From an uncultured Acidobacteriota bacterium (GTDB taxonomy: Bacteria; Acidobacteriota; Terriglobia; Terriglobales; SCQP01): a stretch of DNA of 64,000 nt. Below the pieces are notes generated by a model, which was given only the letters and a program-made list of their open reading frames with translations, ran no database searches and was not told the DNA's origin. Location: positions 16,000-79,999 of the forward strand of contig CALEJU010000025.1 of NCBI GenBank assembly GCA_937898755.1, read 5' to 3'. Both the position numbers and the translations under genes were made by a program. Below are positions 1,672-30,287 of the stretch, in pieces; the stretch's first letter is position 1; each line of letters begins with the position of its first letter.

Positions 1672-2180
1672 AGCGACTGCGGCCGGTGGCCACGGATAGG
1701 ACATGCGCAAGGGCTTTGAGGTGCGGGACCGGATGGAGTGCGAGCCGCGCAGCGGGCACGAGTTCGTGTTCTCGAACCGTCAGCAGAACCGGATGGAGCT
1801 GCTCTATGGGAACAGAAGCAGGCTATGGATGTGCGCCAAGCGGCTGGAGGAGGGCGGATTCCGCTGGCCGGAGGCGGGCCGGGAGGCGAAGATTGCGCGA
1901 AGCCGGGCGGAGCTGGCGCTGCTGCTGGACGGCATTGACCTGGCGCAGACCAGAAAGCGCGCCTGGTGCCGGCGGGCGGTGCCACAATAGGGCACTCAGC
2001 GACCCCGCCCTCCAACGCCGCCGCTGCCATCCCCGGGAAGATCGAGAAGCCTCGCGCGCTACTGAGCGCGATGCAGGAGGAGCTGACCAGCGTAAAGGGC
2101 GCGCGGCAGCCCTCAAAGCTGCGCATCGAGTAGCTGGTGAGAGCTTGCGACGCTCGGCGTAGCGCAGCTCTACAGCCCAA
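1672..2180 (+). mobile_element. tnpB: IS66-family remnant: degenerate tnpB plus start of tnpC
   Basis: ORF 1703-1990 MRKGFE..FVFSNR..LWMCAKRLEEGGFRWP..ELALLLDGIDL is the IS66 TnpB pattern with deletions; followed by a broken coiled-coil frame (IEKPRALLSAMQEEL..KLRIE*) like the TnpC N-terminus. Confidence 0.8.
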
Positions 2181-2375
2181 GCATGGGGGCAAGAGGCCTC
2201 AAATGCCGGCCCTTGCCCCACGCCCCATCCCCACTGAAAAAGGGGGAAGACCGGAGGTAATCTGTTGTAGTCTCATATGAACGGAAGCGGGGGGCCGGTC
2301 CCTCTTGCCGCTCGAACAATCCGTGAAGCTGTGGCTCAAATCGAGGGGCACGCTCTGTCGGAACATTTGGCATTA
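2172..2375 (+). repeat. Non-coding structured element, copy A (possible orphan IS110-family non-coding end)
   Basis: 2172-2300 aligns by eye (~80%) to the reverse complement of 44328-44457; shared exact blocks GGCAAGAGGCCTCAAAT, TCTGTTGTAGTCTCA, TGAACGGAAGCG; hairpin GGGGCAAG..CTTGCCCC. The repeat is seen directly; the IS110 assignment and the extension to ~2375 are recalled resemblance only. Confidence 0.75.
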
Positions 2376-2411
2376 ACGCTGCAAAACGCGTGAAACGAGA
2401 GAGGGAGGTCA

Positions 2412-3113
2412 GTGGTAATGGCAAATGGCTGTGAGTCACAGGCCGGAGGGCTGCCCAATCGGGGCAAACCCTGGCTTGCGGCATACACCCGTCCTCGACA
2501 TGAGCAAAAAGTTTTGCGGTATTGGCAGTCGTTCGGCTTCGATGCATTTCTTCCGACCTACAAGAGCTGGCGGAATTGGAGTGATCGCCGCAAGGTTCTC
2601 CAGCTCCCATTGTTTCCCGGCTACGTTTTTGTGCGCATCACAGAAGAAGAGCGGCAATCCGCGGTGCAAGCCCCTGGGCTTTTATGGTTTGTTCATAATG
2701 CGCGTAAAATCCTCTCCATTGACGAGCAGGAATTGCACGCAATCCGGCGTCTGCTGGACAGTGGATTCGAGTACGGACCGCTTGCCAGCGTCAGCGTAGG
2801 CGACGAGGTGGAAATAGTTTCGGGAGCAATGACCGGGCAGCGGGGGTGCCTGTTGAGCAAAGATCCTGGATCAATTGTGCTCAGGATATCGGCCATCAAC
2901 GGGTTCGTGCGCGTCAAGGTGCCAGATCCATCATGGCTCGCGCCGGTTGCTCGCCACCGTGTGCGATCACCCGCGCTCAGTCCCGCAGATCATTGCCCTG
3001 CTTCAGTACCCGTTGCGGCCGCAGTCGAGGCGGGAATTCCGATCACGTTTATTTCGCGGGCCTCAATAAATGACCAGCCAGACAACAAATCAACGCCATT
3101 CAAATCGGTCTGA
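2412..3113 (+). CDS. UpxY/RfaH-type NusG-family transcription antiterminator
   Basis: WLAAYTRPRHEQKV, PTY..W..R...LPLFPGYVFV (NGN domain), VGDEVEIVSGAMTGQRG (KOW); GGAGG RBS upstream; heads a long polysaccharide operon. Confidence 0.88.
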   Translation: MVMANGCESQAGGLPNRGKPWLAAYTRPRHEQKVLRYWQSFGFDAFLPTYKSWRNWSDRRKVLQLPLFPGYVFVRITEEERQSAVQAPGLLWFVHNARKILSIDEQELHAIRRLLDSGFEYGPLASVSVGDEVEIVSGAMTGQRGCLLSKDPGSIVLRISAINGFVRVKVPDPSWLAPVARHRVRSPALSPADHCPASVPVAAAVEAGIPITFISRASINDQPDNKSTPFKSV

Positions 3114-3251
3114 GCGCCAACGACTGAGCCTCCGTCCGGTCCATCGCAACCGCGAGCTGCAGTTGCGGATAGAAACCGACATCAGTGGCAACATTCCACC
3201 CTGGGACGGCCGTCCACTCTGATCGCACTCAGCAAAGATCTCTGACTCACC

Positions 3252-5498
3252 ATGAAGACCCTACTCCGTCAGCGCGAAGCCGATCCTGACGTCAAACTGC
3301 CGTCGGCCCGGGTTGTACCCGACATGGTGGCCTTGTCAAGCAATGGCCCAGAGCCGGAAGACTCGCTTCCGCTCTACCTCTACTGGGGGTATGTCCGCCG
3401 GTATCTGTGGCAGATCGTGACGTTGATCATGGTGGTCACCACTGCCGCCACCATCTATGCCCTGTCGCGTCCCAAGCTATACGATGCCATGGCGATGGTC
3501 CGGATCTCGCCCTTCGGAACCCACGTCACCGACGCTAACGAAACGACTCCCGCAAGTGCCATCTCGCCGACGACGTTGATTGGCACCGCCAGCGAAATGG
3601 TCATCAGCCCGGCGGTCGTCTTAAAAACCATTGACGACCTTCATCTGGATAACGAGCCCACCCTGCTCACCGCGAAGGATCGGGCCAGTCTGAGTCCCCA
3701 GAAGCAGCGGGAACTTCTTCTGCGCGAAGTCACCGAGTCGATCAACGTCGAACGCCCTCCCATGACCCTGCTCATGGAGATTCATTTCCGCGCTCGCCGA
3801 CCGGATCTGGCCGCGCGCATCGCCAACGGACTGGCCCAGTCGTTCCTGACGGTTGAATATCAGAGCCGAGTGCAGGAGATTCGCGCCAGTTCGCAATACA
3901 TGTCGGCTCAACTGGATGACCTGCGGGCCGCCATGGAGCGCGCGCAGAGGGCGCTGGTGAACTACGAAACCACGCATAACGTCATTAATCCGGATGATAA
4001 AACCAACATCTTCCAGTCGCGCCTGGCTTTCCTCAATACGGAGGTCGCGCAAGCGCAAGGGGCGCGCATGCAGGCGGAAGCGGAATACCACGTTCTGGCC
4101 AGCGGCGGATTGCCCGCCGTGCTCTCCGCCAAACTGAGCGAAACGCTCCAGCCGCTGGTGGCCCGGCTGCGGCAGGACAAACTGCGACTGGCCGACATGA
4201 GCGCCGTGTATGGACCGAATTATTTCCTGTACACGCAGCAACAGGATCGGGTGCGCAATGACGAGGAGTTGCTGGCAAAGCAGGTGCAGGGCGTCGTGGA
4301 GCAGGTTCAAAGCCGCTACCAGCAGGCCCTCCGGAATGAGCATCTTGTGCAACAGGAAATGGATCGCCAGAAGGCGGTTCTGGACGACTTCAATCTCCGT
4401 GCCATCCGTTATACCGAACTGAAGGCGGATGCCGACAGCACCTCGACGCTTTACTACGATCTCCTGCGCAAGCTCAAGGAATCGAATGTCGGTGCGGAGT
4501 TCCGCTCCGATGACATCCGCGTGGTCAATCCCGCCCTGCCCAACCCGATTCCGTCCTATCCCAACGTGCGGCTTATTTCACTGTTGGCTCTCCTCTGTTC
4601 CACGGCGCTGGGAATCGGTGGCGCGATTCTCGTGGGAACGCTCGACCGCAGCGTGGTTGACCCGGAACAACTCGCGCAATGGCTTCATCTGCCCGTGCTC
4701 GCCTCCGTGCCTCTTGCTGCCGGAGCAGCCCTCACGCTGCGACGCTCGCCCGTCCTGACCGCGGGTGCTCCGGCGGAGGAAACGGCAGGATTGCTGCCGA
4801 CCCTGGAGAAGTCCGCTACCCAGTCGTCCGTGTTCGGTGAGGCGGTGCTGTCGCTGCGATCGGCGCTGCTCTTCGGAGCGCCCGAAAATATGACCGTCCT
4901 CGCGGTCAGCAGTTCCGTGCCCGGCGAAGGCAAGAGCACCCTCGCGGCCCACCTCTCCATTGCCTTTGCCGATATGGGTAATCGAACGGTTCTGGTCGAC
5001 GCCGATATGCGCCGACCCAACGTCCACCGGCTCTTTGGTGTCACCAACCGGGCAGGGTTGGCGAGCGTACTTCGCGGCCGTTGTCCCCTGGACGAGGCCC
5101 TGGTCTCGGTTGCCGGGCGTCCTAACCTGTGGATCCTGCCCGCCGGCACCGCCACCGGCGACACGACGGAATTGCTTTTACTCGGTCTCGCCGATGTCTT
5201 GGACGGGTTGCGAAGCCGCTTCAGCCTGGTGCTGATTGACTGTCCGCCGGTGCTGGGATTCGCGGACAGCCCCGCCGTGGCGAATGCTGCCGACGCCACC
5301 CTCATGGTGGTACACGCGGGCAAGACCGATCGCAACGTTCTGAAAGCGGCCGTCGCCGCGCTCCGGCACGCCCGCGCGCAGATTGTCGGCATCGCTCTCA
5401 ATCAGGTCGACCACAAACTCAGCAATTACTACGGATATTATCGCAACTACGCCAAGTCCGGGTATTACGCCGCGACTCCGGACGACGCCAATGATTAA
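3252..5498 (+). CDS. wzc: Polysaccharide co-polymerase / BY-kinase (Wzc, GumC-type)
   Basis: Two TM segments flanking a coiled-coil region; Walker A SSVPGEGKST, LVDADMRRP, LIDCPP; C-terminal Tyr cluster YYGYYRNYAKSGYY. Confidence 0.93.
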   Translation: MKTLLRQREADPDVKLPSARVVPDMVALSSNGPEPEDSLPLYLYWGYVRRYLWQIVTLIMVVTTAATIYALSRPKLYDAMAMVRISPFGTHVTDANETTPASAISPTTLIGTASEMVISPAVVLKTIDDLHLDNEPTLLTAKDRASLSPQKQRELLLREVTESINVERPPMTLLMEIHFRARRPDLAARIANGLAQSFLTVEYQSRVQEIRASSQYMSAQLDDLRAAMERAQRALVNYETTHNVINPDDKTNIFQSRLAFLNTEVAQAQGARMQAEAEYHVLASGGLPAVLSAKLSETLQPLVARLRQDKLRLADMSAVYGPNYFLYTQQQDRVRNDEELLAKQVQGVVEQVQSRYQQALRNEHLVQQEMDRQKAVLDDFNLRAIRYTELKADADSTSTLYYDLLRKLKESNVGAEFRSDDIRVVNPALPNPIPSYPNVRLISLLALLCSTALGIGGAILVGTLDRSVVDPEQLAQWLHLPVLASVPLAAGAALTLRRSPVLTAGAPAEETAGLLPTLEKSATQSSVFGEAVLSLRSALLFGAPENMTVLAVSSSVPGEGKSTLAAHLSIAFADMGNRTVLVDADMRRPNVHRLFGVTNRAGLASVLRGRCPLDEALVSVAGRPNLWILPAGTATGDTTELLLLGLADVLDGLRSRFSLVLIDCPPVLGFADSPAVANAADATLMVVHAGKTDRNVLKAAVAALRHARAQIVGIALNQVDHKLSNYYGYYRNYAKSGYYAATPDDAND

Positions 5499-5576
5499 CC
5501 TGGCGGCCGGGCGCCACTCCCGGCAATGCGCCGCGATCGCCGACCTGGAGCGGCTTGGCCGCGAAGGATGGGTGTC

Positions 5577-6566
5577 ATGAAATCACTGAAGGCCGCACTT
5601 TTGCTGCTACTCCTGCTTGCCGTGTCGAGCCTGTCGGTCAGGGGACAAAGCGCACCGCTTGCTGACGAACGGGACGCGATTCCGTTCACAACGTCGGGTG
5701 ATTTGCAGCCGGCTCAGATAACGCCGGCGGCCCCCGCGTCTTACGCCATCGGCCCCGGAGATTTGCTCGCGATCTATGTGCTCCAAATGCCGGAGATGAA
5801 TCGCCAGATTCGGGTCAGCGCCGGCGGCGCCATCTCCTTGCCCTTCATCGCCAAGCCCTTTGACGTCAACGGTAAAACCGCCGATGCGGTGGCCAGCGAC
5901 ATCGAAGGGAGGCTGGTGGCCGACGGGATCGCGCGCCACCCAGCCGTGGAAGTAACCGTCCGCGACGTCGAAAGCCGCCCGATTACCGTGGCCGGCGCCG
6001 TCAATCAGCCCAGGGTCATCCAGGCATATCGGCCGTTTACGCTCATGGAAGTCATCGCCCGCGCGGGCGGCCCGAGCAAGTTGGCCAGCGACAAGATTCT
6101 CCTCAGCCAACCCGAACAGGGGGGATTGCAGACACGGGTTCTCAGCCTGAACGCACTCATGCAGGGGACCGATCCCGCCGTTAACCCCCTCCTGGAAGGT
6201 GGAGAGGAGATCAGACTTCTGCCTGCGGTGCCGGTCTACGCTACCGGGGCGTTGCATCGTCCCGGCGCCTTTCTGCCGCAGTCCGGCGAAGCCATCACCG
6301 TCCTGCGCGTCATTGCCATGGCCGAGGGGATGCAAGAGCCGTCGGACAAGCAGCATGCCGAAATCATTCGCCGCAGCACCGGTCATTTGCAGCAGATCCC
6401 CATCAATCTGGAAGCCATCCTGCACCACAAGGCCGAAGATGTTGAACTCCAACCCGGGGACATCCTCTATGTGCCCGTGAATCATCGCCGCAGCGCTTTG
6501 AATCAGATCCTCTCGGATGCCGGCTCCGCCGCCGTGATCGCCATTGGATATGGCGTGACCAGATAA
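5577..6566 (+). CDS. wza: Polysaccharide export protein with SLBB domains (Wza-like)
   Basis: Signal peptide; YAIGPGDLLAIYV, RVSAGGAISLPFI, VAGAVNQP, LQPGDILYVP; start moved to ATG 5577 after AAGGA. Confidence 0.88.
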   Translation: MKSLKAALLLLLLLAVSSLSVRGQSAPLADERDAIPFTTSGDLQPAQITPAAPASYAIGPGDLLAIYVLQMPEMNRQIRVSAGGAISLPFIAKPFDVNGKTADAVASDIEGRLVADGIARHPAVEVTVRDVESRPITVAGAVNQPRVIQAYRPFTLMEVIARAGGPSKLASDKILLSQPEQGGLQTRVLSLNALMQGTDPAVNPLLEGGEEIRLLPAVPVYATGALHRPGAFLPQSGEAITVLRVIAMAEGMQEPSDKQHAEIIRRSTGHLQQIPINLEAILHHKAEDVELQPGDILYVPVNHRRSALNQILSDAGSAAVIAIGYGVTR

Positions 6567-6649
6567 CCTGAGAACGCCATCGTTCCAAGCCGGATCGACG
6601 CTGGGGCGATCAACACGGACGACAGAATTCGTTAATCGAGAGACTGAGC

Positions 6650-7834
6650 ATGCCGATCCTTCCCTTTCAGTTCAAGCTCAACACGGATCTTCGATTTGGC
6701 GTCGGCGCCCTGGCCCGCTTGCCGGAGTGGCTCGAACAGGCGGGTTGGCGCCGCCTCGCCTTGGTGATCGATGGGGGCGTCAGCCGCCATCCGCGGTGGC
6801 AGGCGATGGCCACCGAGTTGCAGCAGAGATTCACCATCGTCGCTCAACTGGAAACCAACGTCACCGAGCCCACCTATGACTACCTGGATGAGATTCGGAC
6901 CCGGTTCATGGGGCGGCCGATAGATGCTTTCATCGCCATCGGCGGCGGCAGCGTTCTGGATCTCGCAAAGGCGCTGTCCCTGCTGGTCACCAATGAGTTG
7001 CCGGCAATTCAATACCGCGGATTTGACCTTCCGCAAGTTCCGGGGCCGCCGCTCGTCGTCATTCCCACCACTGCCGGCACCGGTAGCGAGGTCACACCCA
7101 ACGCCGTTCTTACCGATTCACGCGAACAGCGCAAGTTTGGTATCAACACCACACTTTACCTGCCCCGCTTTTGTCTGCTTGATCCGGAGTTGACGCAATC
7201 CTGTCCGCGTTCGGTGACCGTCTCTTCCGGCATGGACGCCTTGGTTCACACGCACGAGAGTTTCGTTTCCAGGAAGGCGACGCCGATCAGCCGGATGTAT
7301 TCGTTGGAGGCATTCGGGCTGATTTTCAACTCTCTGGCCACCGCGGTCGAAGAGCCCGACGACCTTGATGCGAGAAGTCAGATGTTGCTGGGAAGTTACC
7401 TGGCGGGTACGGCGCTCTTCAACTCCAGCGCCGGACCGGCGGGCGCACTCTCCTATCCGCTGGGGGTTCACTATAAGGTGCCCCATGGGTTGGCGGGAGC
7501 CGTCTTTCTCCCGCACATCGTCCAGCACAACGTGGACCGCGGCTATGGGCAATACAAGGAGCTTTACGACCGTATCCAGGGCGCCGAAGCGGTGCATGAT
7601 CCGGTCGAAGCCAGCCGGCGCTTCTGTGCCCGCTTGTGGGAACTTTGCCGGCGCATCGGGGTGCCGTCAAGCCTGGAACAATTTGCCTTTCGGCGGGCCG
7701 ATCTGGATTCCTTCCTGGAGCAGGCGCAAAAGCTCCAAGCCGCGTTCGAAATGAATCCAGTGCCCTTCGGAGTGGAAGACGCGAAGCGGATTCTTGATCA
7801 GATGACGGAAGGGTTGGCCGTTCAGAAAGCATAG
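6650..7834 (+). CDS. Iron-containing alcohol dehydrogenase family sugar oxidase (KdnB-like)
   Basis: GGGSVLDLAK, PTTAGTGSE, DALVH, VPHG motifs; directly upstream of a KdnA-like gene. Confidence 0.85.
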   Translation: MPILPFQFKLNTDLRFGVGALARLPEWLEQAGWRRLALVIDGGVSRHPRWQAMATELQQRFTIVAQLETNVTEPTYDYLDEIRTRFMGRPIDAFIAIGGGSVLDLAKALSLLVTNELPAIQYRGFDLPQVPGPPLVVIPTTAGTGSEVTPNAVLTDSREQRKFGINTTLYLPRFCLLDPELTQSCPRSVTVSSGMDALVHTHESFVSRKATPISRMYSLEAFGLIFNSLATAVEEPDDLDARSQMLLGSYLAGTALFNSSAGPAGALSYPLGVHYKVPHGLAGAVFLPHIVQHNVDRGYGQYKELYDRIQGAEAVHDPVEASRRFCARLWELCRRIGVPSSLEQFAFRRADLDSFLEQAQKLQAAFEMNPVPFGVEDAKRILDQMTEGLAVQKA

Positions 7835-7842
7835 AGGACAAC

Positions 7843-9048
7843 ATGCCAGGTTGGGAAATCATCGACGAGCAAGAGCGGGCTGCGGTCAACGCGGTCTTCG
7901 ATAATGGTGCAGTCCTGTTCCGGCAGAGCTTTGCCGCACTCCGCAACAACATCTACAAGGTGAAGGAATTCGAACAGGCGTTTGCCGCCTACACCGGCGC
8001 AAACCACGCACAGGCCGTCACCTCCGGTACGGCGGCCGTCAAAGTCGCCCTGAAGGCGCTCGAGATCGGACCGGGCGACGAGGTCATCACTCAGAGCCAT
8101 ACCTTTGTGGCCACGGTCGAGGCGATTCTGGAATGCGGCGCCATTCCGGTGATTGCCAACATCGACGAGACCTTGAATCTCGACCCCGAGGATTTGCTGC
8201 GCAAGATCACTCCACGCACCCGGGCGGTCATTCCGGTTCACATGCTGGGGGTAGCGGCGCGCATGGACCGGGTTCTGGAGATCGCCCGCCGTCACGGCTT
8301 GTACGTCGTGGAAGACACCGCCCAGGCCTGTGGGGGAACTTGGCAGGGCAGGAAACTTGGAACGCTCGGCGATGCCGGCACGTTCAGCTTTGACCATGGG
8401 AAGTTTCTGACCACCGGCGAAGGCGGCATGGTGGTGAGCAATGATCCCCAGGTCGCTTTTCGGGCCAAGTGCTATACCGATCACGGCCACGAGGATAATC
8501 CCGCGTTTCCGCGGGGTGAGGACACCCGGTCACGCCCGGGATTCAACTACCGGATGATGGAGTTACAGGGCGCCATCGGCGTGGTGCAGCTCGGCAAGCT
8601 GCCGGGTTCACTGGACCGCCATCGTGCCAACAAGCGCGCGCTCCGCGCCGCGCTGGACGCCCACGTCTCCGCCCCCCTGGTCTATCGCACGGTGACCGAT
8701 CCGGACGGCGATACCGGCGATGCGCTCGTCTTTTTCTTGGAGACGGCCGAGCGCGCCCGCGCCGTGGCGCGGACCCTGCAAGGGCGCGGGATCGGCTTCA
8801 AAAACCTACCCGACGCCCTGAACTGGCATTTCGCCGGGACGTGGGACCATCTGCTGGCTGACACCCCTGCATTGCATGGGGCCACGCTCGCCCAGCACTG
8901 CGAGCCCAGTGAACGTATTCTGCGCCGCGCCATCGCACTGCCCATTTTTTACAAGATGGACGACGCCCGATTCGCCCAGATCGCGACCGAAGTGGAAGGC
9001 GCATTGCGACAAACCCGCGAAAAGAGCGCAACTTTTTCCGTGCGGTGA
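7843..9048 (+). CDS. DegT/DnrJ aminotransferase, KdnA-like (Kdo C8 transaminase type)
   Basis: MPGWE N-terminus, SGTAA, PGDEVI, SFDHGKFLTTGEGG (PLP Lys), DHGH; resembles Shewanella KdnA as recalled. Confidence 0.82.
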   Translation: MPGWEIIDEQERAAVNAVFDNGAVLFRQSFAALRNNIYKVKEFEQAFAAYTGANHAQAVTSGTAAVKVALKALEIGPGDEVITQSHTFVATVEAILECGAIPVIANIDETLNLDPEDLLRKITPRTRAVIPVHMLGVAARMDRVLEIARRHGLYVVEDTAQACGGTWQGRKLGTLGDAGTFSFDHGKFLTTGEGGMVVSNDPQVAFRAKCYTDHGHEDNPAFPRGEDTRSRPGFNYRMMELQGAIGVVQLGKLPGSLDRHRANKRALRAALDAHVSAPLVYRTVTDPDGDTGDALVFFLETAERARAVARTLQGRGIGFKNLPDALNWHFAGTWDHLLADTPALHGATLAQHCEPSERILRRAIALPIFYKMDDARFAQIATEVEGALRQTREKSATFSVR

Positions 9049-9084
9049 GGTTTATGTTCCGCAGAGCTGGAACCGGCCGCCCGT

Positions 9085-9906
9085 GTGCCCAGCGCTAGGG
9101 GACATTCAGTGGATGCCATCCTGCAAGTCAGAATGAGCTCAAGTCGTCTGCCCGGCAAGGCGCTCCTGCCGGTGCTGGGACGGCCGCTCCTGTGGTACAA
9201 CATCGAACGCATCCGGTTGTCCCGGATGATCGATCGGGTGGTTGTGGCGACCAGCACCGACCCCGCCGACGATGTCATTACCGCCGCCTGTGAGGGATGG
9301 GGAACGCCAGTGTTCCGCGGCAGCCTGAACGACGTTCTGGACCGCATCTACGGTTGCGCCCGCCATTTCGAGATGGACGTCTTCGCCAAATTCACCGCCG
9401 ACAACCCGCTCATCGACCCCTGCGTCATCGACGCGGTGATCGCCGGCTTCCGCAGCAACCCCGCGCCGCTTGACTATTACAGCAACAATCACCCGCCAAC
9501 CTGGCCCGACGGCCAGGAAATCGAAGTCATCCGGACTGCGGCCTTGGAGAGCGCATGGCGGGAATCGCAAGAGGCTTTCCAGCGGGAGCACGTTACGGTC
9601 TGGTTGTGGGATCAGCCGCAGCGATTTCGCGTCGGCAACCTTGCGCGCAGCAACAACGCCTGGTACCAGCGCTATCGCTGGACGCTGGACTTTCCCGAGG
9701 ATTACGTACTAATCCGTCGCATTTTTGAAGAGCTTTACCCCGCTCAGCCGGCTTTTGGCACCACCCAGATCATGGCCCTGATCGATCGCAAGCCGGAGCT
9801 GGCCGAATTGAATCGAAGGCACAAGGGCGACGTTTGGTATCGCCACCACCGGGATTCGTTGCAAACCGTGGCTAAGGAAATGACCCTCGAAAGTTCGCGC
9901 CCATGA
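9085..9906 (+). CDS. SpsF-like cytidylyltransferase (CMP-ulosonate synthetase type)
   Basis: AILQVRMSSSRLPGKAL, VVVATS, FRGSLNDVLDR, TADNPLID, RWTLDFPED; start may be GTG 9109. Confidence 0.82.
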   Translation: MPSARGHSVDAILQVRMSSSRLPGKALLPVLGRPLLWYNIERIRLSRMIDRVVVATSTDPADDVITAACEGWGTPVFRGSLNDVLDRIYGCARHFEMDVFAKFTADNPLIDPCVIDAVIAGFRSNPAPLDYYSNNHPPTWPDGQEIEVIRTAALESAWRESQEAFQREHVTVWLWDQPQRFRVGNLARSNNAWYQRYRWTLDFPEDYVLIRRIFEELYPAQPAFGTTQIMALIDRKPELAELNRRHKGDVWYRHHRDSLQTVAKEMTLESSRP

Positions 9907-10955
9907 GCCATTCGATTTCCATTGCCGGGCGTGAAGTTGGCGTTGATCGTCCCACGTTTGTCATTGCCGAAGCGGGCGTCAACCATAACGGTGATCTGGC
10001 GACCGCCATGCGCATGGTGGAAGTGGCAGCCCAGAGCGGCGCCGATGCCGTAAAGTTTCAGACCTTCGATTCCGATGCACTGGCGACCGCCGCCGCCCCC
10101 AAAGCGGAGTACCAGGTCCGGACCACCGGCGGGAGCGAATCGCAGCGGGACATGCTGCGGCGTTTGCAATTATCGGCGGCCGCGCATCGCGAACTGAAGT
10201 CTCATGCCGATCGCCAGGGCATCATCTTTCTGTCAAGCCCCTTCGACGACGCCAGCGTGGATCTGCTGCTGGACCTCGGCGTCCCGGCGTTTAAGATCCC
10301 TTCCGGCGAGCTGACCAACCTGCCCTTGCTCCAGCGGATCGCCCGCTCCGGCAAGCCGGTCATCCTTTCGACCGGAATGGCGGGACTGGGTGAAATCGAG
10401 AGTGCGCTTCGCTGCCTGCTGGCCGAGGGGGCGGAGAACGTCATTCTGCTGCAATGCGTGACCCAGTACCCGGCCGATCCGGCCGACGTCCACTTACGGG
10501 CCATGGCAACGATGAAGGCCACCTTCGGGCTGCCGGTCGGCTATTCCGATCATACGGAGAGCCCAGAGGTCGTCCTGGCGGCGGTGGCCCTGGGTGCCTG
10601 CGTGATCGAGAAGCACTTCACGCTGGATCGAACCTTGCCCGGACCGGACCATCGGGCATCCGCCGAGCCGGCGGAATTGAAACAACTCATCACTTCCATT
10701 CGCGTAGTGGAGTCCGCGCTGGGGACGCCGCGCAAGCGGCCCGGAGCCGGGGAGCTGCAAAACGCGAAAGTTGCGCGCAAGAGCTTGGTCGCGCGCGTCA
10801 AAATTCCAGCGGGCGCTCCCTTCACCGCCGACAACGTAACCACCAAGCGGCCCGGCACCGGCATCGCGCCGGGCCATCTCGACATCGTCTTGCAACGTCG
10901 TGCGCGGGTCGACATCGAGCCGGACCAACTCTTGTCGTGGGACATGCTGGCCTGA
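9903..10955 (+). CDS. neuB: Nonulosonic acid synthase (NeuB/LegI) with C-terminal SAF domain
   Basis: IAEAGVNHNGD, ADAVKFQTF, KIPSGELTN, ILSTGMA, GYSDHT, IEKHFTLD, GPDH, KRPGTGI. Confidence 0.93.
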   Translation: MSHSISIAGREVGVDRPTFVIAEAGVNHNGDLATAMRMVEVAAQSGADAVKFQTFDSDALATAAAPKAEYQVRTTGGSESQRDMLRRLQLSAAAHRELKSHADRQGIIFLSSPFDDASVDLLLDLGVPAFKIPSGELTNLPLLQRIARSGKPVILSTGMAGLGEIESALRCLLAEGAENVILLQCVTQYPADPADVHLRAMATMKATFGLPVGYSDHTESPEVVLAAVALGACVIEKHFTLDRTLPGPDHRASAEPAELKQLITSIRVVESALGTPRKRPGAGELQNAKVARKSLVARVKIPAGAPFTADNVTTKRPGTGIAPGHLDIVLQRRARVDIEPDQLLSWDMLA

Positions 10956-11201
10956 CCGGCTGTCCCACCCCGCCACATTCCGCCTACCACGGGCCATGCG
11001 TCACGGGACCGCTGGCCTGCCGCCGACCGGGCCTGGGCCGGGGCCTTGATCCGTCTTCCCAGCGGCTTCCGGACCGCCACGACAGCACGACCGAAACCTG
11101 ACGCATCCCCATGGTTCATCCTTATCGGGCCACTGAACTTGATCCGGCTTCGCCTTGGCGAAGACAAGTCAACGCGGCTTGCCCGCGCCCAGGGAGCATG
11201 C

Positions 11202-12365
11202 ATGTCGCGACGTAAGATTCTGGTGTTGACCGGAATCCGTTCGGAATATGGCATCTTATTTCCCGTTCTGCGTGCCATTCAGGAACACCCCCAGCTGGAA
11301 TTGCTGGTGGTCGCCGCTGCGGCCCATTGCTCACCCGCCTTGGGTCACACGGTGGAGATGATTGAACAAGATGGGTTTCCGATTGCAGAGCGGATCGAGA
11401 GCCTGCTGAGTTCGAACACGCCGGGCGGAAGAATCAAGTCGACCGCCATCGAGATGCTCGGTCTGGTGCAAACCCTCGAGCGTTTGCGCCCCGATCTGAT
11501 CGTGGCGGTGGGCGATCGCGAGGAGCCGCTGGTGGCGGCCTTCTGCGGCGTACATTTGAACATTCCGATGGCGCACCTGTGCGGCGGCGATTATGTGATT
11601 GGCGGGAACGCGGACGACTCCATCCGCCACGCGGTCAGTAAAATGGCGCATCTGCACTTTCCCATGAGCGAGATGAGCGCGGAACGGCTCCGTCGCATGG
11701 GCGAAGAAGACTGGCGGATCCACTGCACCGGCAACCCCGGCTTGGACCGCTTGTTCTGGGAACCCCCGCTCACGCGCGAGGAACTCGCGTCACGTTGGGG
11801 CTTCGCTCTTGGCCAGTCACCGCTGGTGGTGATCATTCAGCATCCCGTCAATGCAGAAGCCGGGGACGCCGCGCGGCAGATGGCGATCACGCTGGAGGCC
11901 GTGGCCGACGTCCGCTGTACCGCGATTCTCATCTACCCGAACTCCGATCCGGGCAGTCACGATACGATTCGCACCATAGAGTCCTATTTGCCAAAGACTG
12001 GCCATCTCCACGCGTTTCGGAATCTCCCGCAATCGGAGTTTGTCAACCTGCTGCGGCATGCCGGCGTTCTAGTGGGGAATTCCAGCCTCGGTATTCTGGA
12101 AGCACCGGCGCTACGCCTGCCCGTCGTGAACATCGGCAATCGTCAAAACGGGCGGGAGCACGCCGCCAACGTCCAATTTGTCCCCCATGAGAAGGCGGCC
12201 ATCCAGCACGCCACGGAGCGCGCCCTGTTCAATGCCGGCTACCGCGAGGAGGTTGCACAGTGTCACAACCCCTTCGGAGATGGCCATGCGGGGAAGCGCA
12301 TTGCTGACATTCTTGCCACCTGCCCGCTCGACGAAACCCTCCTGCTCAAACGGGGCGTGCAGTGA
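11202..12365 (+). CDS. neuC: Hydrolysing NDP-GlcNAc/diacetamido-sugar 2-epimerase (NeuC/LegG)
   Basis: LTGIRSEYG, GDREE, HLCGGD, IRHAVSKMAHLHF, YPNSD, GNSSLG, NIGNRQNGR, FGDG; start ATG 11202 after AGGGAG. Confidence 0.92.
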   Translation: MSRRKILVLTGIRSEYGILFPVLRAIQEHPQLELLVVAAAAHCSPALGHTVEMIEQDGFPIAERIESLLSSNTPGGRIKSTAIEMLGLVQTLERLRPDLIVAVGDREEPLVAAFCGVHLNIPMAHLCGGDYVIGGNADDSIRHAVSKMAHLHFPMSEMSAERLRRMGEEDWRIHCTGNPGLDRLFWEPPLTREELASRWGFALGQSPLVVIIQHPVNAEAGDAARQMAITLEAVADVRCTAILIYPNSDPGSHDTIRTIESYLPKTGHLHAFRNLPQSEFVNLLRHAGVLVGNSSLGILEAPALRLPVVNIGNRQNGREHAANVQFVPHEKAAIQHATERALFNAGYREEVAQCHNPFGDGHAGKRIADILATCPLDETLLLKRGVQ

Positions 12366-13045
12366 GTGAACCGCCTCCCATGCGGGTCGTCGGGATCGGA
12401 GCGGGCGGACACGCCAAGGTCCTTCTGGATATCCTATTGACCGACCCTCGGGTCCGCGTGATCGGGGTGACCGATTCGGATCCGGCTCTCAGGGGGCAGT
12501 CCGTTCTGGGCATTCCCGTGCTGGGGGGCGATGACATCCTTGCCTCTCTGCGGAGCCAGGGGGTGGAGGGCGCTTTCATCGGCGTCGGCAGCGTCGGACC
12601 CGCCCTGCGGTGCCAGCAGCTGTTTGAAGACATGCAGCATCGGGGATTCCATATCCTTTCGATCACCCACCCCCGCGCCGTCGTGGCGCGCGATGTGCAA
12701 CGCGCCACCGGCGTGATGGTGATGGCGGGAGCGGTCGTCAACCCGGGTGTGCATCTCGGATGCAACGTCATCATCAACACCGGCGCCATCGTCGAGCACG
12801 ACACTTGGATTGGCGATCACGTGCACGTGGCGCCGGGCGCGGTGATCGGCGGTGGGGTGGTGGTCGAAGCGGGTGCCCACATCGGGCTGGGCGCGCGGAT
12901 CCGGCAGGGTATCCGCATTGGAGCCCACGCGCTCGTGGCGTCCGGAGCTGTCGTCGTCCGCGATGTGGCGGCGCACACACAGGTGATGGGAGTGCCCGCG
13001 CGTCCGCGGGATTGGTCCAGGGGGGAAGAGTCGCGCCATGACTGA
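12362..13045 (+). CDS. NeuD/PglD-family sugar N/O-acetyltransferase
   Basis: GAGGHAKV; hexapeptide repeats INTGAIVEHD, HVAPGAVIGG; GVPAR. Confidence 0.9.
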   Translation: MSEPPPMRVVGIGAGGHAKVLLDILLTDPRVRVIGVTDSDPALRGQSVLGIPVLGGDDILASLRSQGVEGAFIGVGSVGPALRCQQLFEDMQHRGFHILSITHPRAVVARDVQRATGVMVMAGAVVNPGVHLGCNVIINTGAIVEHDTWIGDHVHVAPGAVIGGGVVVEAGAHIGLGARIRQGIRIGAHALVASGAVVVRDVAAHTQVMGVPARPRDWSRGEESRHD

Positions 13046-14099
13046 TCCGGATCTGGAACAGTTTCTGGTAACGAAATACACGACGCTGCGCCAGGCCATG
13101 CAGGCGATTGACCGCAATGCTCAAGGCATCGTCCTGGTCGTCGACCCCGATCGGCGGCTGCTGGCCACCTTGACCGACGGCGACATCCGGCGCGCCATTC
13201 TGCAAGCCATCAACCTGGACGACCCGGTGGAGTCGCTGCTATCCGTGCAAGAGAAACAGTTCCCCGTTACCGCGCCGGCGGGAAGCAACGACCATGAAAT
13301 CGCGAAACTCATGCAGGCGCATTCTATTCGCCAAGTCCCCATGCTGGACGCAGGCCAACGCGTGGTGGCCCTGCGTTGTCGGGAACAGATCCCCCTTGCC
13401 CCGGGTGCCATCCGCGCCGTGGTCATGGCCGGTGGCTTCGGGAAACGATTGCGCCCGCTGACGGAACATTTGCCCAAGCCGCTGCTACCGATTGGTGATC
13501 GTCCCCTGCTGCAACACACCATTGAACAACTCTGCGCCGCCGGCTTCCACCAGGTCAGTATCACCACCCACTTCAAAGGCGAGCTGATCCGTGATCACTT
13601 CGGCGGCGGCGAGGACTACGGCGTCGCCATTGACTATGTCTCCGAAGACATTCCCTTGGGAACCGCCGGCGCCCTGGCGCTTCTCGATCCGCCGACCGAG
13701 CCCGTGCTGGTGATCAACGGGGATATCCTGACGCGATTGGATTTCCGCTCCATGCGCGATTTCCACTTCCGGCAGAACGCTGTCATGACGGTCGGTATCA
13801 CGCGCTACGACCAACAGGTCCCGTATGGCGTGGTGGAGTTGCAAGGCGCGCAGATTCTGAACATTAAAGAAAAGCCCGTCAGCAATTTCTTTATCCTGGG
13901 CGGGATCTATTTGATCGGCCCGGAGGCATGGCAGTTTCTACGCCGGGGAGAACGCTGCGACATGCCGGATTTGATCCGTCTGCTGATCGCCGCGGGGCGC
14001 AAGGTGGTCAGCTTCCCCATTGCCGAGTATTGGCTGGACATTGGCCAGATGAAAGACTACGAGCGCGCCTTGGCGGATGTTGCCGGCGGACGGTTTTAA
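13038..14099 (+). CDS. CBS-domain sugar-phosphate nucleotidyltransferase (PtmE/LegX-type)
   Basis: N-terminal CBS (TLTDGDIRRAIL); MAGGFGKRLRPLT..PKPLL, PLGTAGAL, NGDILT, WLDIG. Confidence 0.9.
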   Translation: MTDPDLEQFLVTKYTTLRQAMQAIDRNAQGIVLVVDPDRRLLATLTDGDIRRAILQAINLDDPVESLLSVQEKQFPVTAPAGSNDHEIAKLMQAHSIRQVPMLDAGQRVVALRCREQIPLAPGAIRAVVMAGGFGKRLRPLTEHLPKPLLPIGDRPLLQHTIEQLCAAGFHQVSITTHFKGELIRDHFGGGEDYGVAIDYVSEDIPLGTAGALALLDPPTEPVLVINGDILTRLDFRSMRDFHFRQNAVMTVGITRYDQQVPYGVVELQGAQILNIKEKPVSNFFILGGIYLIGPEAWQFLRRGERCDMPDLIRLLIAAGRKVVSFPIAEYWLDIGQMKDYERALADVAGGRF

Positions 14100-14129
14100 A
14101 CCATTTCGGGATCGCTGGAGGAGGAGATT

Positions 14130-15098
14130 GTGGGTCTTACGCTGATCACCGGCGGAGCCGGTTATATCGGGAGCGCTCTGGTTCCCCAACTGTTGGCGGC
14201 CGGTCGCAAGGTCCGCGTCGTGGACTGGCTCCGCATGCAGGGTGAAAGTCTGCTCCCAGTATGGAATCAACCCGGGTTTGAGTTCCAGAAGGGGGATATC
14301 ACGCGCGCCCCCGATCGGGAACGTGCGCTGGATGGCGTGACCTCGATCATCCACCTCGCCGCCATCGTTGGGGATCCGGCCTGCAAGAAGGAGCCCGAAC
14401 TCGCCCGCTCGGTCAACCTCGATGCCACCTGCGCGCTGATCGACGGGGCCCGCCGCCACGGGGTGCGGGACTTCATCTTCGTTTCGACGTGCAGCAACTA
14501 CGGGATCAGCGACCCCGGCCAACTCGCGACCGAGCAGTCCCCGCTCAACCCGGTGTCGCTGTACGCCGAGACCAAGGTGGAGGCCGAACGCTACCTGCTG
14601 CAGTACGCCGGCCCCAGTTTCATCCCCACCGGGCTGCGACTCGCCACCGTCTACGGCGTGGCGCCGCGGATGCGTTTCGACCTGACCGTCAACGAGTTCG
14701 CCCGCGATGCCGCGCTGGGACGCAAGCTGGTCGTCTTCGCGGAAAAGCTGTGGCGCCCCTACGTGCATGTGAAGGATGTCGCCGCAGCCATTCAACTGGT
14801 CCTCGAAAGCCCCGAGGCGGCTCGCAGCGGCCAGGTGTTCAACGTCGGGCACACCACGGAAAACTACCAGAAACAACGCCTGTGCGAATTGTTGCAGGCC
14901 CGGGTTCCGGACCTGGTCGTCGAGTATGTCGCACAAGGCAATGACCCGCGCAGCTATCGCGTCAGCTTTGAACGGATCGGGACGGAGCTGGGCTTTCGTC
15001 CGCAGTTCCGCGTTCCCGATGGCATCGACGAGACCCTGGCCCTCGTCCGGGACGGCATCATTGCCGACCCGGACGAGCGGCGCTGGCGGAACAGTTAG
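14130..15098 (+). CDS. NAD-dependent epimerase/dehydratase (extended SDR)
   Basis: TGGAGYIG, HLAAIVGDPAC, STCSNYG, YAETK (YxxxK), RFDLTVN. Confidence 0.9.
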   Translation: MGLTLITGGAGYIGSALVPQLLAAGRKVRVVDWLRMQGESLLPVWNQPGFEFQKGDITRAPDRERALDGVTSIIHLAAIVGDPACKKEPELARSVNLDATCALIDGARRHGVRDFIFVSTCSNYGISDPGQLATEQSPLNPVSLYAETKVEAERYLLQYAGPSFIPTGLRLATVYGVAPRMRFDLTVNEFARDAALGRKLVVFAEKLWRPYVHVKDVAAAIQLVLESPEAARSGQVFNVGHTTENYQKQRLCELLQARVPDLVVEYVAQGNDPRSYRVSFERIGTELGFRPQFRVPDGIDETLALVRDGIIADPDERRWRNS

Positions 15099-15109
15099 GA
15101 CATTGATCC

Positions 15110-16291
15110 ATGGCGGATGAATTCATTCCTCTCTGTGTTCCCGCTCTCCGCGGCAACGAACTGCAATACCTGCGTCAATGTGTCGAGACCAACTGGGTCT
15201 CCTATGTAGGCCCGTTTGTCTCGCAGTTCGAGGCGCTCACCGCGGCGTATGTCGGTCAACCGCATGCGGTGGCCACGAACAGTGGTACGGCGGCCCTGCA
15301 CATGGCCCTGCTGCTCGCCGGCGTGCAACCGGGTGACGAAGTGCTGGTCTCGGACCTCACCTTTATCGCGCCCGTGAACACGATCCGCTACTGCGGTGCG
15401 TACCCTGTCTTCATTGATGCGGAGCCGCACTACTGGCAGATGAACGCGGACGACGTACGGTCTTTTCTGGAACAGGAATGCACGGCGGCGAACGGTCGCT
15501 TGGTCAACCGGCGCTCGGGGCGGCCCGTGACCGCCCTGCTGCCGGTCCATATTCTCGGTCATCCCGTCGATCTGGATCCGCTGCTGGAACTGGCCCGCCG
15601 TTTCGATCTGAAGTTGATCGAGGATGCAACCGAGGCGCTCGGCGCGCGCTATCGCGGGCGGCGCGCGGGGGGATTCGGGGACTCGGCCTGCTTTAGCTAT
15701 AACGGCAACAAGCTGATCACCACCGGCGGCGGGGGCATGCTGGTCACCGCCGACGCGGAGACCGCGCGACGCGCCAAACATTTGACCACCCAGGCGAAAT
15801 CCAGCGCGGACGAGTATTTCCACGACGAGATCGGCTACAACTATCGCCTCACCAATATCCAGGCCGCGGTGGGCGTCGCCCAGATGGAACAGATCGACGA
15901 CTGCATTGCGCGCAAGCGGGCTATCGCCGCCCGCTATGCGGCGGAGCTGGCCGAGGTCCCGGGCCTGACCTTGCCCGGCGAAGCGGACTGGGCATTCTCG
16001 ACCTTCTGGTTGTACACGGTTCTCATTGACGAAGCGGTAACGGGAATTTCCAGCCGCGCATTGATGCGATCCCTCGCGGAAGCCAAAATCCAGACGCGGC
16101 CCTTGTGGGGACTCATGCACGACCAGGCGCCCCACCGCCAGGCGCAGGCCTACCGCATCCAAGAAGCGCCGCGCTTGTTCCGCGAGGGCCTCAGTCTCCC
16201 CTGCTCGGTGGATTTGACCGACGAGCAACAAGCCCGGGTCATTGCCGCAGTGCGCCGGCATCTGCTCGCTTCCGCGGCGACGCCACGATGA
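15110..16291 (+). CDS. LegC-family aminotransferase
   Basis: IPLCVP..GNE..Y...CVETNWVS.VGPFV, SGTAALH, FSYNGNKLITTGGGG, YFHDEIGYNYRLTN. Confidence 0.88.
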   Translation: MADEFIPLCVPALRGNELQYLRQCVETNWVSYVGPFVSQFEALTAAYVGQPHAVATNSGTAALHMALLLAGVQPGDEVLVSDLTFIAPVNTIRYCGAYPVFIDAEPHYWQMNADDVRSFLEQECTAANGRLVNRRSGRPVTALLPVHILGHPVDLDPLLELARRFDLKLIEDATEALGARYRGRRAGGFGDSACFSYNGNKLITTGGGGMLVTADAETARRAKHLTTQAKSSADEYFHDEIGYNYRLTNIQAAVGVAQMEQIDDCIARKRAIAARYAAELAEVPGLTLPGEADWAFSTFWLYTVLIDEAVTGISSRALMRSLAEAKIQTRPLWGLMHDQAPHRQAQAYRIQEAPRLFREGLSLPCSVDLTDEQQARVIAAVRRHLLASAATPR

Positions 16292-17490
16292 TTGACCGGG
16301 TCATCTTCCTGCTGCACTCACCTCTGAACGGCCGTGATTTCGACCGGTTCGGGATTGATATTCTGCAGCAGCACGGGTTTAATGTCGAAACGTGGGACGC
16401 AAGTCACCTGTTGTGGCCCACGGTACAACCCAGCGATCAACCTCTCCATTTCGAGGGTGAAAGGAGATTTCGGGACCTCGGCGCGGTTCGCCGGGAACTG
16501 AGTCGCCTGCCGCGCTCGTCCTTTGTCATCCCGCTATTCACTGCGGCAGAAAACTTTGGCACCTTGCGTGTCTTTCGAACCTTGTCCGCCAGTGCCGCGC
16601 GCTACGGACTGACACAACTGGCGGCGCTTCCAACGACGCCGCAACTATCGCACGGGCGGCGACTGGAACGCGCCGTTCAAGACCCGTCCTGGCTGATCAC
16701 GCGATCCATCTTTCGGGCAGCCCTGGCTTGTTCCCCGCTTCGCCCTCCTGACCTCTTGCTGGTCAGCGCAGGAGGCGCCCTGCGAGGGATTCAAGTACAT
16801 CCTGAAACCGAGGTGCTGTGGACACATTCGTTGGATTACGATCTCTTTCGGCAACTCCGGTCGAGCCATGGTGTTCCCCGGCTTGATTGCGGCATCTTTC
16901 TGGACGAGTACAACGCATACCATCCAGACTTCCGACGTTTGGGAATCCCGACGCCGGTGACCGCCGAGCGGTACTATCCCGCGCTGTGCCGTTTTTTTGA
17001 CCGATTGGAACGGGAGCAGCATTGCCGCATCGAAATCGCCGCCCACCCGGTTTCCGATTACCGGGATGCCGACCCCCGCTTTGGGGGGAGGGTTATCCAT
17101 CGCGGTCGCACCATGGCTCAAGTGGCGGAATCTGCCTTTGTCCTGGCGCACTGCAGCACCTCTATTCTGCATGCGGTGCTGTGGCGCAAGCCCGCGATTT
17201 TTTTCAAGACGGGTGAAATGAAGGGCACTGCATACGAGTCCACCATTGATGCGATGGCTTCCCTGCTCAACAAGACCCCTTGGTGGGCAGAACAGGATGT
17301 GGAGATGGATTGGACTGAAGCGATGCGGGTCGATGAAACCGCCTATCGCACCGCCCAAAACGACTACATCAAGCGCGAGGGTTCGGAGGACCGTCCCTGC
17401 TGGGAGATTGTCGCGCGACGCCTGCAGGCATACGGACGCGAAGTGTCCACGCCTGCCTCGCGCTCACGCCCTCTGGTAAATTCCCTTTGA
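16288..17490 (+). CDS. Uncharacterised GT-B-like protein, candidate ulosonate transferase
   Basis: Start coupled to the legC stop (ATGA); C-terminal IAAHP and LAHCSTSILHAVLWRKP resemble sialyl/Kdo-transferase-like folds; function inferred. Confidence 0.55.
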   Translation: MIDRVIFLLHSPLNGRDFDRFGIDILQQHGFNVETWDASHLLWPTVQPSDQPLHFEGERRFRDLGAVRRELSRLPRSSFVIPLFTAAENFGTLRVFRTLSASAARYGLTQLAALPTTPQLSHGRRLERAVQDPSWLITRSIFRAALACSPLRPPDLLLVSAGGALRGIQVHPETEVLWTHSLDYDLFRQLRSSHGVPRLDCGIFLDEYNAYHPDFRRLGIPTPVTAERYYPALCRFFDRLEREQHCRIEIAAHPVSDYRDADPRFGGRVIHRGRTMAQVAESAFVLAHCSTSILHAVLWRKPAIFFKTGEMKGTAYESTIDAMASLLNKTPWWAEQDVEMDWTEAMRVDETAYRTAQNDYIKREGSEDRPCWEIVARRLQAYGREVSTPASRSRPLVNSL

Positions 17491-19046: not shown

Positions 19047-19281
19047 ATCACTGGTCGGAAATGAGTGTGGGTCGGAATCAATCCTCCACAATCTTAAATC
19101 GTAGTAAGAGTTGTTCAAGTCCCGATGGATCTCAATGTGAAGGTGGTGACGGATGAGCGCCGATCCGATCGCTTGCCGCCGGGGCGACACCTATGATGGT
19201 ATTAGCTCAAACTTTCGGAAGGTGCTGGCTGAAAAGTTCGAAGGATGATCTACGTTTGTCGAAGCGAAGGACTCTGCACGA

Positions 19282-20154: not shown

Positions 20155-20377
20155 ATTGAGCTTAGCGGGAGATGAGCGGACAGTTCAGAGGTGCTGAGCG
20201 TCGAAGCGAGGGCGTTGCCCCGACGGAGCAGGTCAGTGGCGGGTGTCACCGCGTGGTTCCGGGTGGGGTTTGGAATGTCCACCATTCGCCTGAGCTATCA
20301 TCAACCGGCAGGGACCGCGCTGACGTTTTCCTGATTCTTCAGCAAATACACAGAAAGCGCGTGGGGAGAAACTGTAC

Positions 20378-21157: not shown

Positions 21158-21246
21158 CGAACGCCGTTCCTGTCGGCAGCTTGTAAACTCTCAAAAGGCC
21201 GAGAGAGCGATAGCCGGCCGCTACCCGCACAGACCGGACAAGAATC

Positions 21247-24811: not shown

Positions 24812-24907
24812 AATAGAAATCAATGACTCGGGACACTAGCCTGAAACTCTGCTGCGTCCGGCGGCGTCCGGCTTGGCCGCGTGCGTCCCCGTGCCATCCC
24901 CTTATTC

Positions 24908-30251: not shown

Positions 30252-30287
30252 AAAACAGAACACGATCGTCAGGAACTTTCTTTTAGC

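Follow-up and report, generated by a model that had tools for sequence, protein, structure and literature searches.

What does a glycan locus make when its first two genes recall the modification of an eight-carbon ulosonic acid and the genes behind them recall the synthesis of a nine-carbon one? The question is raised by positions 6,650–10,955, with their flanks, of a 64,000-nucleotide stretch from an uncultured Acidobacteriota bacterium (contig CALEJU010000025.1). We refer to this whole stretch as the window, and all gene coordinates follow its numbering. In Shewanella, KdnB, of the iron-dependent alcohol dehydrogenase (Fe-ADH) family, and KdnA convert 3-deoxy-D-manno-octulosonate (Kdo) to 8-amino-Kdo (Kdo8N) for lipopolysaccharide (LPS). 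To our knowledge, the exchange of a terminal hydroxyl for an amino group on an ulosonate is known only there, on eight-carbon Kdo. The initial annotation of the window listed an oxidase, a transaminase, a cytidylyltransferase, neuB and neuC, all of which are present on the + strand where it had placed them. Its proposal of a KdnB/KdnA-style oxidation and transamination on an ulosonate of a surface polymer is supported by the placement of the aminotransferase in the KdnA family and by the recurrence of the module in many phyla. As to the product, the genes lead us to favour, by a little, a pathway that keeps the hydroxyl at C9 of a nonulosonic acid and a pair that would convert it to an amino group, giving a 5,7-diacetamido-9-amino nonulosonate.

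The aminotransferase and its partner dehydrogenase

The second gene of the pair (7843–9048, + strand) encodes a DegT-type pyridoxal phosphate (PLP) aminotransferase. Among all PDB chains its top match was Shewanella KdnA (5k8b; E 3.9e-79, residues 1–388, 38% identity), followed by perosamine synthetases (E 7e-57), and Lys187, Asp158 and Gln161, the PLP lysine and the Asp and Gln of the DegT fold, do not vary in the alignment with KdnA. A maximum-likelihood tree of 70 sequences placed KdnA as sister, with a support of 99/90, to the clade of 58 rows in which the window aminotransferase falls, and LegC and the other DegT paralogues from the same loci outside both. On sequence grounds, the enzyme is thus a member of the KdnA family. 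The linkage to kdsB and waaA that would mark 8-oxo-Kdo as a KdnA-type substrate was not seen; the neighbours are instead the Fe-ADH, a CTP_transf_3 protein and NeuB.

The aminotransferase has thousands of relatives, which JGI pipelines label as Kdo8N transaminases, even in methanogens. It was found in none of 40 genomes from the same family or order, and its nearest homologues belong to other phyla, so the locus looks horizontally mobile, like many surface-glycan loci.

The first gene (6650–7834, + strand; PF00465 and PF25137) ends 9 bp before the aminotransferase gene and encodes the Fe-ADH. Its top structures were FucO (162.7 bits) and, at about 160 bits, dehydrogenases of methanol and of 1,3-propanediol, while KdnB (5k8c) reached 79.6 bits at about rank 34 in PDB. 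All of its NCBIfam matches were primary alcohol or aldehyde enzymes and all fell far below the cut-off, the best being regulatory ErcA at 233 bits. The nearest characterised relatives, namely the FucO, 1,3-propanediol, methanol, 4-hydroxybutyrate, sulfoacetaldehyde and phosphonoacetaldehyde enzymes, have in common the interconversion of primary alcohols and aldehydes. Judged by its sequence, the Fe-ADH is not a KdnB orthologue and belongs to a separate Fe-ADH lineage, with kinship to KdnB only at the family level. Of the KdnB/KdnA-like pair initially annotated, for which a phylogeny with the characterised enzymes had been proposed as the check, the KdnA half therefore stood, by the tree as by the structure search, and the KdnB half did not, given the distance in structure-search bits.

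The unusual metal site that had been pointed out in this enzyme, PAGALSYPLG for VHGMAHPLG of FucO, was confirmed (GPAGALSYPLG). In the alignment the first His of the FucO motif is replaced by Gly and the second by Tyr. In FucO the first of these is His263, a metal ligand, and the second is His267; the full set of metal ligands is Asp196, His200, His263 and His277 in FucO numbering. The fold and domains of a type III Fe-ADH are present, and the four metal ligands are not complete, since His263 is Gly. This Gly/Tyr state is kept in homologues at 63% and 42% identity, one of them archaeal, and a state of Gly, Ala or Ser followed by Tyr was seen in 19 partner Fe-ADHs (the window enzyme and 18 more), archaeal ones included, with identities as low as 34%. 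The GGGS NAD motif, Asp196, His200 and the counterpart of FucO His277 (His279 in the window enzyme) are retained in the partner Fe-ADHs. Such conservation across homologues points to a family trait and not to decay; as far as sequence can tell, the variant metal site is real.

Swappable oxidases and the link to NeuB

For a census of the pair, loci were gathered through exact-protein look-up and a scan in which each species was represented by one genome, their flanks were annotated by BLAST with the window proteins, and an oxidase was counted when it lay within 3 kb of the aminotransferase. This gave 57 non-redundant loci (numbered with the prefix L) from about 16 phyla, archaea included. A partner oxidase was present in 48 of them: the window-type Fe-ADH in 23 loci, a second, KdnB-type Fe-ADH in 14, a GMC oxidoreductase in 6 and a PhyH-type dioxygenase in 5. 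No oxidase was detected in the other 9, several of which lie at contig ends. The pairing of oxidase and aminotransferase is far beyond chance, and as the oxidase is swapped while the aminotransferase stays fixed, it argues for a couple that oxidises and then aminates. Carriers of the module come from at least 16 phyla and include Prochlorococcus, SAR86, Leptospira, methanogens and Omnitrophota, as well as bacteria from soil; Methanolobus psychrotolerans and Leptospira idonii are among those in culture.

With 333.6 bits to 5k8c over its full length, the L035 protein shows that the second type of Fe-ADH is truly homologous to KdnB. It retains His263 and has Tyr at position 267, so that Tyr in place of His267 is common to KdnB, L035 and the window Fe-ADH (SYPLG or SYGLS); this residue may be a convergent substrate-binding signature of the two lineages.

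Outside the GMC loci, NeuB was found within 6 kb of the aminotransferase in 41 of 51 loci, and in many loci the CTP_transf_3 gene occupies the slot between the two. In Bacteroidota, pairs of KdnB/KdnA type adjoin NeuB and NeuC alone, a pathway of sialic type with a primary hydroxyl at C9 of its product.

The six GMC loci (L051–L056, e.g., L055:10001–14647) come from metagenome-assembled genomes of Rhodobacteraceae (Marinosulfonomonas, Profundibacter). Their order is aminotransferase, CTP_transf_3, GMC oxidase, followed by WaaA of the Kdo type in five of the six, the sixth having short flanks; NeuB was present in none. In the tree they form a long-branched subclade nested inside the aminotransferase family, and they look like a Kdo8N-type operon outside Shewanella in which a flavin oxidase replaces KdnB. 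Together with the NeuB-linked loci, this nested WaaA-linked subclade indicates that the family serves both eight- and nine-carbon ulosonic acids. Both kinds share a 2-keto-3-deoxy acid head and a terminal CH2OH, which is consistent with an attack on the terminal CH2OH.

In L003, a gene of the D-amino acid oxidase (DAO) family was considered as a substitute for the Fe-ADH and ruled out; it is an L-2-hydroxyglutarate oxidase (LhgO) gene that goes with the short-chain dehydrogenase described below, and the substitute there is PhyH. In an Omnitrophota locus (L014:14930–15919 and neighbours), a window-type cluster adjoins a separate set of pseudaminic acid (Pse) type, with a dehydratase bearing an STDK motif, another DegT enzyme, a cytidylyltransferase and a second NeuB, so that two nonulosonate pathways stand side by side.

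A Cj1427-like protein in place of LegB

From 6650 to 19046 the + strand carries a single densely packed series of genes, as seen from open reading frames (ORFs) and domain searches, with multiple stop/start overlaps after the pair. The aminotransferase gene is followed by a CTP_transf_3 cytidylyltransferase (9085–9906; PF02348; 5′ end uncertain), a predicted CMP-nonulosonate synthetase which reached no NCBIfam equivalog, NeuA, PseF and KdsB included, and whose top structure was 6oew, named only as a cytidylyltransferase. The next genes, also on the + strand, encode a NeuB-type nonulosonate synthase (9903–10955; TIGR03569, 454 bits against a cut-off of 400), a NeuC-type hydrolysing 2-epimerase (11046–12365; TIGR03568, 376 against 236), whose 5′ end is uncertain because the match begins at residue 56, and a NeuD/PglD-type N-acetyltransferase (12362–13045; TIGR03570, 202 against 161). 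They are followed by a PtmE-like protein with CBS and sugar-1-phosphate nucleotidyltransferase domains (13038–14099, + strand; PF00571 and PF00483). By its domains, the latter probably makes an NDP-N-acetylglucosamine (NDP-GlcNAc), likely GDP-GlcNAc. A LegC-family 4-aminotransferase (15110–16291, + strand; TIGR04181, 444.8 bits against 420) completes the set. Thus LegC, N-acetyltransferase, 2-epimerase and NeuB of the CMP-legionaminic acid (CMP-Leg) pathway are all present, and a 4,6-dehydratase of LegB type is not.

The gene between PtmE and LegC (14130–15098, + strand) encodes an extended short-chain dehydrogenase/reductase (SDR), on which the LegB model TIGR04180 scored 64 bits against a cut-off of 475. 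Its top structures were 6vo6 and 6vo8 (E 4e-53, 184 bits), the next structure reaching only 96 bits. The 6vo6 chain is a 313-amino-acid Campylobacter jejuni protein, which we take to be Cj1427. The STDEVYG of RmlB-type dehydratases corresponds to STCSNYG in the window SDR and its orthologues and to NTNSGYG in 6vo6, so that the dehydratase TDE is TCS in the window; in archaeal clusters the SDR adjoining the LegC-like gene reads SSAAIYG. Cj1427 is a ping-pong C4 dehydrogenase that turns a GDP-heptose into a 4-keto sugar without dehydration, and it restores its bound NAD+ by reducing 2-oxoglutarate to L-2-hydroxyglutarate (PMC10680097; PMC7949155).

A scan of metagenome contigs seeded with the SDR returned more than 527 relatives, and the best 80 loci were analysed. 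The SDR was usually accompanied in them by PtmE-, LegC-, PglD- and NeuB-like genes; such clusters are abundant and are now annotated as legionaminic acid pathways. In 11 of the 80 loci a DAO-family gene directly adjoins the SDR (L066, L067, L070, L081, L092, L104, L106, L113, L125, L130 and L003/L062). Three of the four DAO proteins that were scored, from L003, L070 and L113, passed the LhgO model NF008726 with 396, 523 and 318 bits (cut-off 299), and the fourth, from L081, also had LhgO as its best match (251 bits); among 14 control genomes, a single one had a match to this model above the cut-off. A 4,6-dehydratase is redox-neutral and needs no external oxidant, and for this reason LhgO beside the SDR fits a net oxidation of Cj1427 type and not a 4,6-dehydratase. 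The adjacency suggests a 2-oxoglutarate/L-2-hydroxyglutarate shuttle. Taken together, the Cj1427-like SDR, the TCS triplet and the LhgO context argue that the hexose would keep its 6-hydroxyl and the nonulosonate its 9-hydroxyl, the SDR being a predicted NDP-GlcNAc C4 dehydrogenase that leaves the 6-hydroxyl in place. The legionaminic acid pathway initially annotated downstream of the pair is thus probably not a true one.

Predicted pathway and alternative explanations

From the family assignments, conserved synteny, motif states and tree, all observed here, we infer the substrates, the regiochemistry and the order of steps as follows. The PtmE-like enzyme would supply GDP-GlcNAc, and the SDR would oxidise its C4 without 4,6-dehydration, the hydride probably passing to 2-oxoglutarate. 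C4 would be aminated by LegC and acetylated by the PglD-type enzyme, NeuC would free 2,4-diacetamido-2,4-dideoxy-mannose with its 6-hydroxyl intact, and NeuB with phosphoenolpyruvate would give a 5,7-diacetamido-3,5,7-trideoxy-nonulosonate carrying CH2OH at C9. The Fe-ADH would turn this primary alcohol into an aldehyde, and the KdnA-family aminotransferase would convert the CHO into CH2NH2. The product, 5,7-diacetamido-9-amino-3,5,7,9-tetradeoxy-nonulosonate, would be activated by the cytidylyltransferase at 9085–9906 and reach an exported polysaccharide through the Wzx/Wzc/Wza system. It is equally possible that the pair acts on C6 of the free hexose before NeuB, with the same outcome. Since no 6-deoxygenation step is evident, C9 rather than C8 is the likely site. 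The most economical reading of the comparison, to which we incline slightly, would be that a nine-carbon sugar undergoes at C9 what KdnB/KdnA do at C8 of Kdo, the oxidase being an Fe-ADH that is no orthologue of KdnB.

Three other explanations were weighed against it. The initial annotation considered that the pair acts on C8 of a nonulosonate to give a Leg variant. In such a case the locus would make true, 9-deoxy Leg, and the pair would oxidise the secondary alcohol at C8 (or C4) and transaminate the ketone to an 8-amino (5,7,8-triamino) sugar or, by reduction, give 8-epi Leg. The PtmE-, LegC-, PglD-, NeuC- and NeuB-like genes are all there, with LegC above its model cut-off, DegT enzymes usually aminate ketones, oxidation of a secondary alcohol is possible for enzymes of the Fe-ADH superfamily and for GMC enzymes, and the absence of dehydration by the SDR rests on inference. 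This explanation, however, requires the SDR to be a dehydratase, and the SDR is like Cj1427 and not like LegB, has no Asp/Glu pair and has homologues with LhgO genes beside them. In addition, no DegT branch other than that of the aminotransferase is known to aminate a free ulosonate at its terminal aldehyde, the pair is also found with NeuB and NeuC alone, where no 9-deoxy sugar arises, and in no locus examined was it tied solely to a dehydratase-based Leg or Pse pathway. We regard action on C8 of true Leg as distinctly unlikely, and C9 as the likelier site since it would keep its hydroxyl. Very unlikely, in our view, is the other initial suggestion, in which the pair makes Kdo8N from housekeeping Kdo and the KdsB-like paralogue at 20378–21157 activates it for an exported polymer. 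What borders the window aminotransferase and its closest relatives, archaeal ones included, is a cytidylyltransferase and NeuB, and neither KdsB nor WaaA; archaeal members cannot serve LPS Kdo, and the genome's only waaA, as well as kdsA and kdsB, are on other contigs. It is true that KdnA is the closest characterised enzyme, that a second cytidylyltransferase in the locus is KdsB-like (PRK13368, 305 bits against 255) and that a Kdo-type subclade exists in the aminotransferase family, but that subclade is a separate long branch with GMC oxidases and, in five of its six loci, WaaA. In Roseivirga (L049), moreover, a KdsB-like enzyme with 53% identity is the sole cytidylyltransferase beside NeuB and NeuC, so this type of paralogue probably activates a nine-carbon sugar.

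The pair may also bypass the ulosonate altogether, with a small diol or a hydroxy acid as its substrate and, as its product, an amino alcohol or an amino acid for decoration of the sugar or the polymer, or the Fe-ADH, with its defective metal site, may be a non-catalytic or regulatory partner. FucO-like enzymes use small diols, the locus also encodes a 2-hydroxyacid dehydrogenase and methyltransferases, the Fe-ADH lacks one of its metal ligands, and the top NCBIfam match, although far below its cut-off, is regulatory ErcA. On the other hand, the conserved NAD-binding GGGS, Asp196, His200 and His279 speak against a non-catalytic Fe-ADH, the aminotransferase branch is specific to KdnA, and a fixed slot by NeuB and the cytidylyltransferase across phyla, in which unrelated oxidase families are swapped, fits a sugar-tailoring couple better. 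We hold these possibilities to be unlikely.

Several observations also weigh against the 9-amino nonulosonate pathway itself. The GMC and Fe-ADH families include secondary-alcohol enzymes, the PhyH partners may catalyse an oxidation of another kind, for instance methyl hydroxylation, and the Fe-ADH, short of one metal ligand, may not be a conventional dehydrogenase. The locus holds a KdsB-like paralogue. The SDR may yet dehydrate in an unusual manner, by means of its conserved Cys. That 6vo6 is Cj1427 is a presumption, as our literature search found no printed tie between the two. There is no LhgO gene in the window, and the LhgO-like gene elsewhere in the genome is below threshold (226 bits against 299). 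The KdnA-like pair was present in only 3 of the best 80 SDR-seeded loci; a strict coupling of the Cj1427-like SDR with the pair was rejected on this count, and retention of the 9-hydroxyl and its amination are thus not strictly coupled.

Beyond the window, we propose tentatively, at a little under even confidence, that KdnA-family aminotransferases with swappable oxidases (the two Fe-ADH lineages, PhyH and GMC) constitute a widespread, undescribed route to omega-amino ulosonic acids. Its products would be sugars of 9-amino-Neu5Ac type in loci with NeuB and NeuC only and 5,7,9-triamino-3,5,7,9-tetradeoxy-nonulosonates in loci of the window type. As a corollary, clusters of PtmE, Cj1427-like SDR, LegC and NeuB would make a 9-hydroxy 5,7-diacetamido sugar by way of the 2-oxoglutarate/L-2-hydroxyglutarate shuttle.

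Comparison with known systems

As in Shewanella oneidensis KdnB/KdnA (5k8c, 5k8b), an Fe-ADH-family oxidase followed by a DegT PLP aminotransferase would act on a 2-keto-3-deoxy ulosonate, here as predicted from the genes; the aminotransferases are of the same family, in sister clades, and both dehydrogenases have Tyr for His267. Unlike KdnB, the window Fe-ADH comes from another lineage (80 bits) and also lacks His263, and unlike the kdn genes of Shewanella, the window genes sit with NeuB, NeuC and a Leg-like amino-sugar branch and not with kdsB and waaA. The predicted substrate has nine carbons, the predicted site is C9, and the product would go to an exported polysaccharide and not to the LPS core.

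With the CMP-Leg pathway (C. jejuni PtmE, LegB, LegC, LegH, LegG, LegI and LegF; the Sps genes of Bacillus subtilis) the window shares a PtmE-like enzyme with CBS, LegC above its cut-off, PglD/NeuD, NeuC- and NeuB-type enzymes and a cytidylyltransferase. It differs in that LegB is replaced by a Cj1427-like SDR without the acid/base pair of dehydratases, and in that two extra genes, for the oxidase and the KdnA-like aminotransferase, lead the set. In 6vo6, presumed to be Cj1427, and in the window SDR, the catalytic Thr is followed by a similar triplet (T-N/C-S), and the half-reaction from 2-oxoglutarate to L-2-hydroxyglutarate matches the LhgO genes beside homologues of the window SDR. Cj1427 also acts on a GDP-sugar, although the substrate predicted for the window SDR is GDP-GlcNAc and not a heptose, and the 4-keto product would be aminated by LegC instead of being epimerised and reduced.

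Nonulosonic acids, of which sialic, legionaminic and pseudaminic acids are members, occur as decorations of capsules, flagella, S-layers and LPS and influence immune and phage recognition. In a literature search on KdnA/KdnB, Kdo8N and nonulosonic acid transaminase or Fe-ADH topics we found no description of the module, nor of the 9-amino sugar predicted from it. If the prediction is true, 9-amino nonulosonates would add a new chemical class, whose members would be zwitterions or could be N-acylated further, and both current labels would be wrong, that of the aminotransferase as a Kdo8N enzyme (JGI names) and that of the rest of the locus as a Leg pathway. It would also give testable roles to two orphan lineages, the Fe-ADH without His263 and the Cj1427-like SDR, and tie L-2-hydroxyglutarate oxidase to sugar biosynthesis. 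The LhgO genes likewise suggest that the common Leg-like SDR clusters which carry them make a 9-hydroxy 5,7-diacetamido sugar rather than Leg.

Other genes of the locus

The genes 5′ of the series encode a sugar-phosphate transferase, a NusG/RfaH-like antiterminator paralogue (2412–3113, + strand; PF02357, E 3e-15), a Wzc-like tyrosine kinase/chain-length regulator with GNVR and P-loop ATPase domains (3252–5498, + strand) and a Wza-like exporter with Poly_export and SLBB domains (5526–6566, + strand). The antiterminator gene thus lies 5′ of the glycan operon, and a NusG gene is also found immediately 5′ of the module in L001 and L003. A scan of 2000–21500 for promoters and terminators gave counts equal to the shuffled expectation and was uninformative.

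At the other end of the series, LegC is followed by a conserved 400-amino-acid protein (16288–17490, + strand) with no match in Pfam, NCBIfam or PDB. The start of its gene overlaps the stop of legC and its end overlaps the start of wzx, so that it is translationally coupled, and at least 10 of the aminotransferase loci have a homologue. From its synteny it is a candidate transferase for the CMP-nonulosonate. The Wzx-type flippase (17487–19046, + strand; PF01943, 26.9 bits, slightly below the cut-off) holds the same position in L001.

Three further genes on the + strand encode an FkbM methyltransferase (19282–20154), the KdsB-like cytidylyltransferase paralogue (20378–21157) and a PGDH-like D-2-hydroxyacid dehydrogenase (21247–22218). 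The separate kdsB that had been noted 10 kb downstream corresponds to the middle one; a KdsB-like gene is indeed there, at a distance of 11 kb, although it is a paralogue with 36% identity to the housekeeping KdsB, whose gene (TIGR00466, 197 bits against a cut-off of 155) lies on another contig (C6 of the assembly as we numbered it). Along with the pair, Roseivirga L049 has the whole trio and Dechloromonas (L018) two of its three members. The trio may serve in tailoring of the new amino group or in activation of a second ulosonate.

The trio is followed on its 3′ side by methyltransferases and more sugar genes. At 23401–23982 the locus is broken by part of an IS630-type transposase, a helix-turn-helix fragment, and a single ORF at 24881–26851 encodes a GT2 glycosyltransferase fused to a complete Zn-type medium-chain dehydrogenase. 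Further downstream, at 28884–33289, there is a second amino-sugar branch with two more DegT aminotransferases, a nucleotidyltransferase and an SDR similar to GDP-mannose dehydratase, so the polymer probably has other unusual amino sugars.

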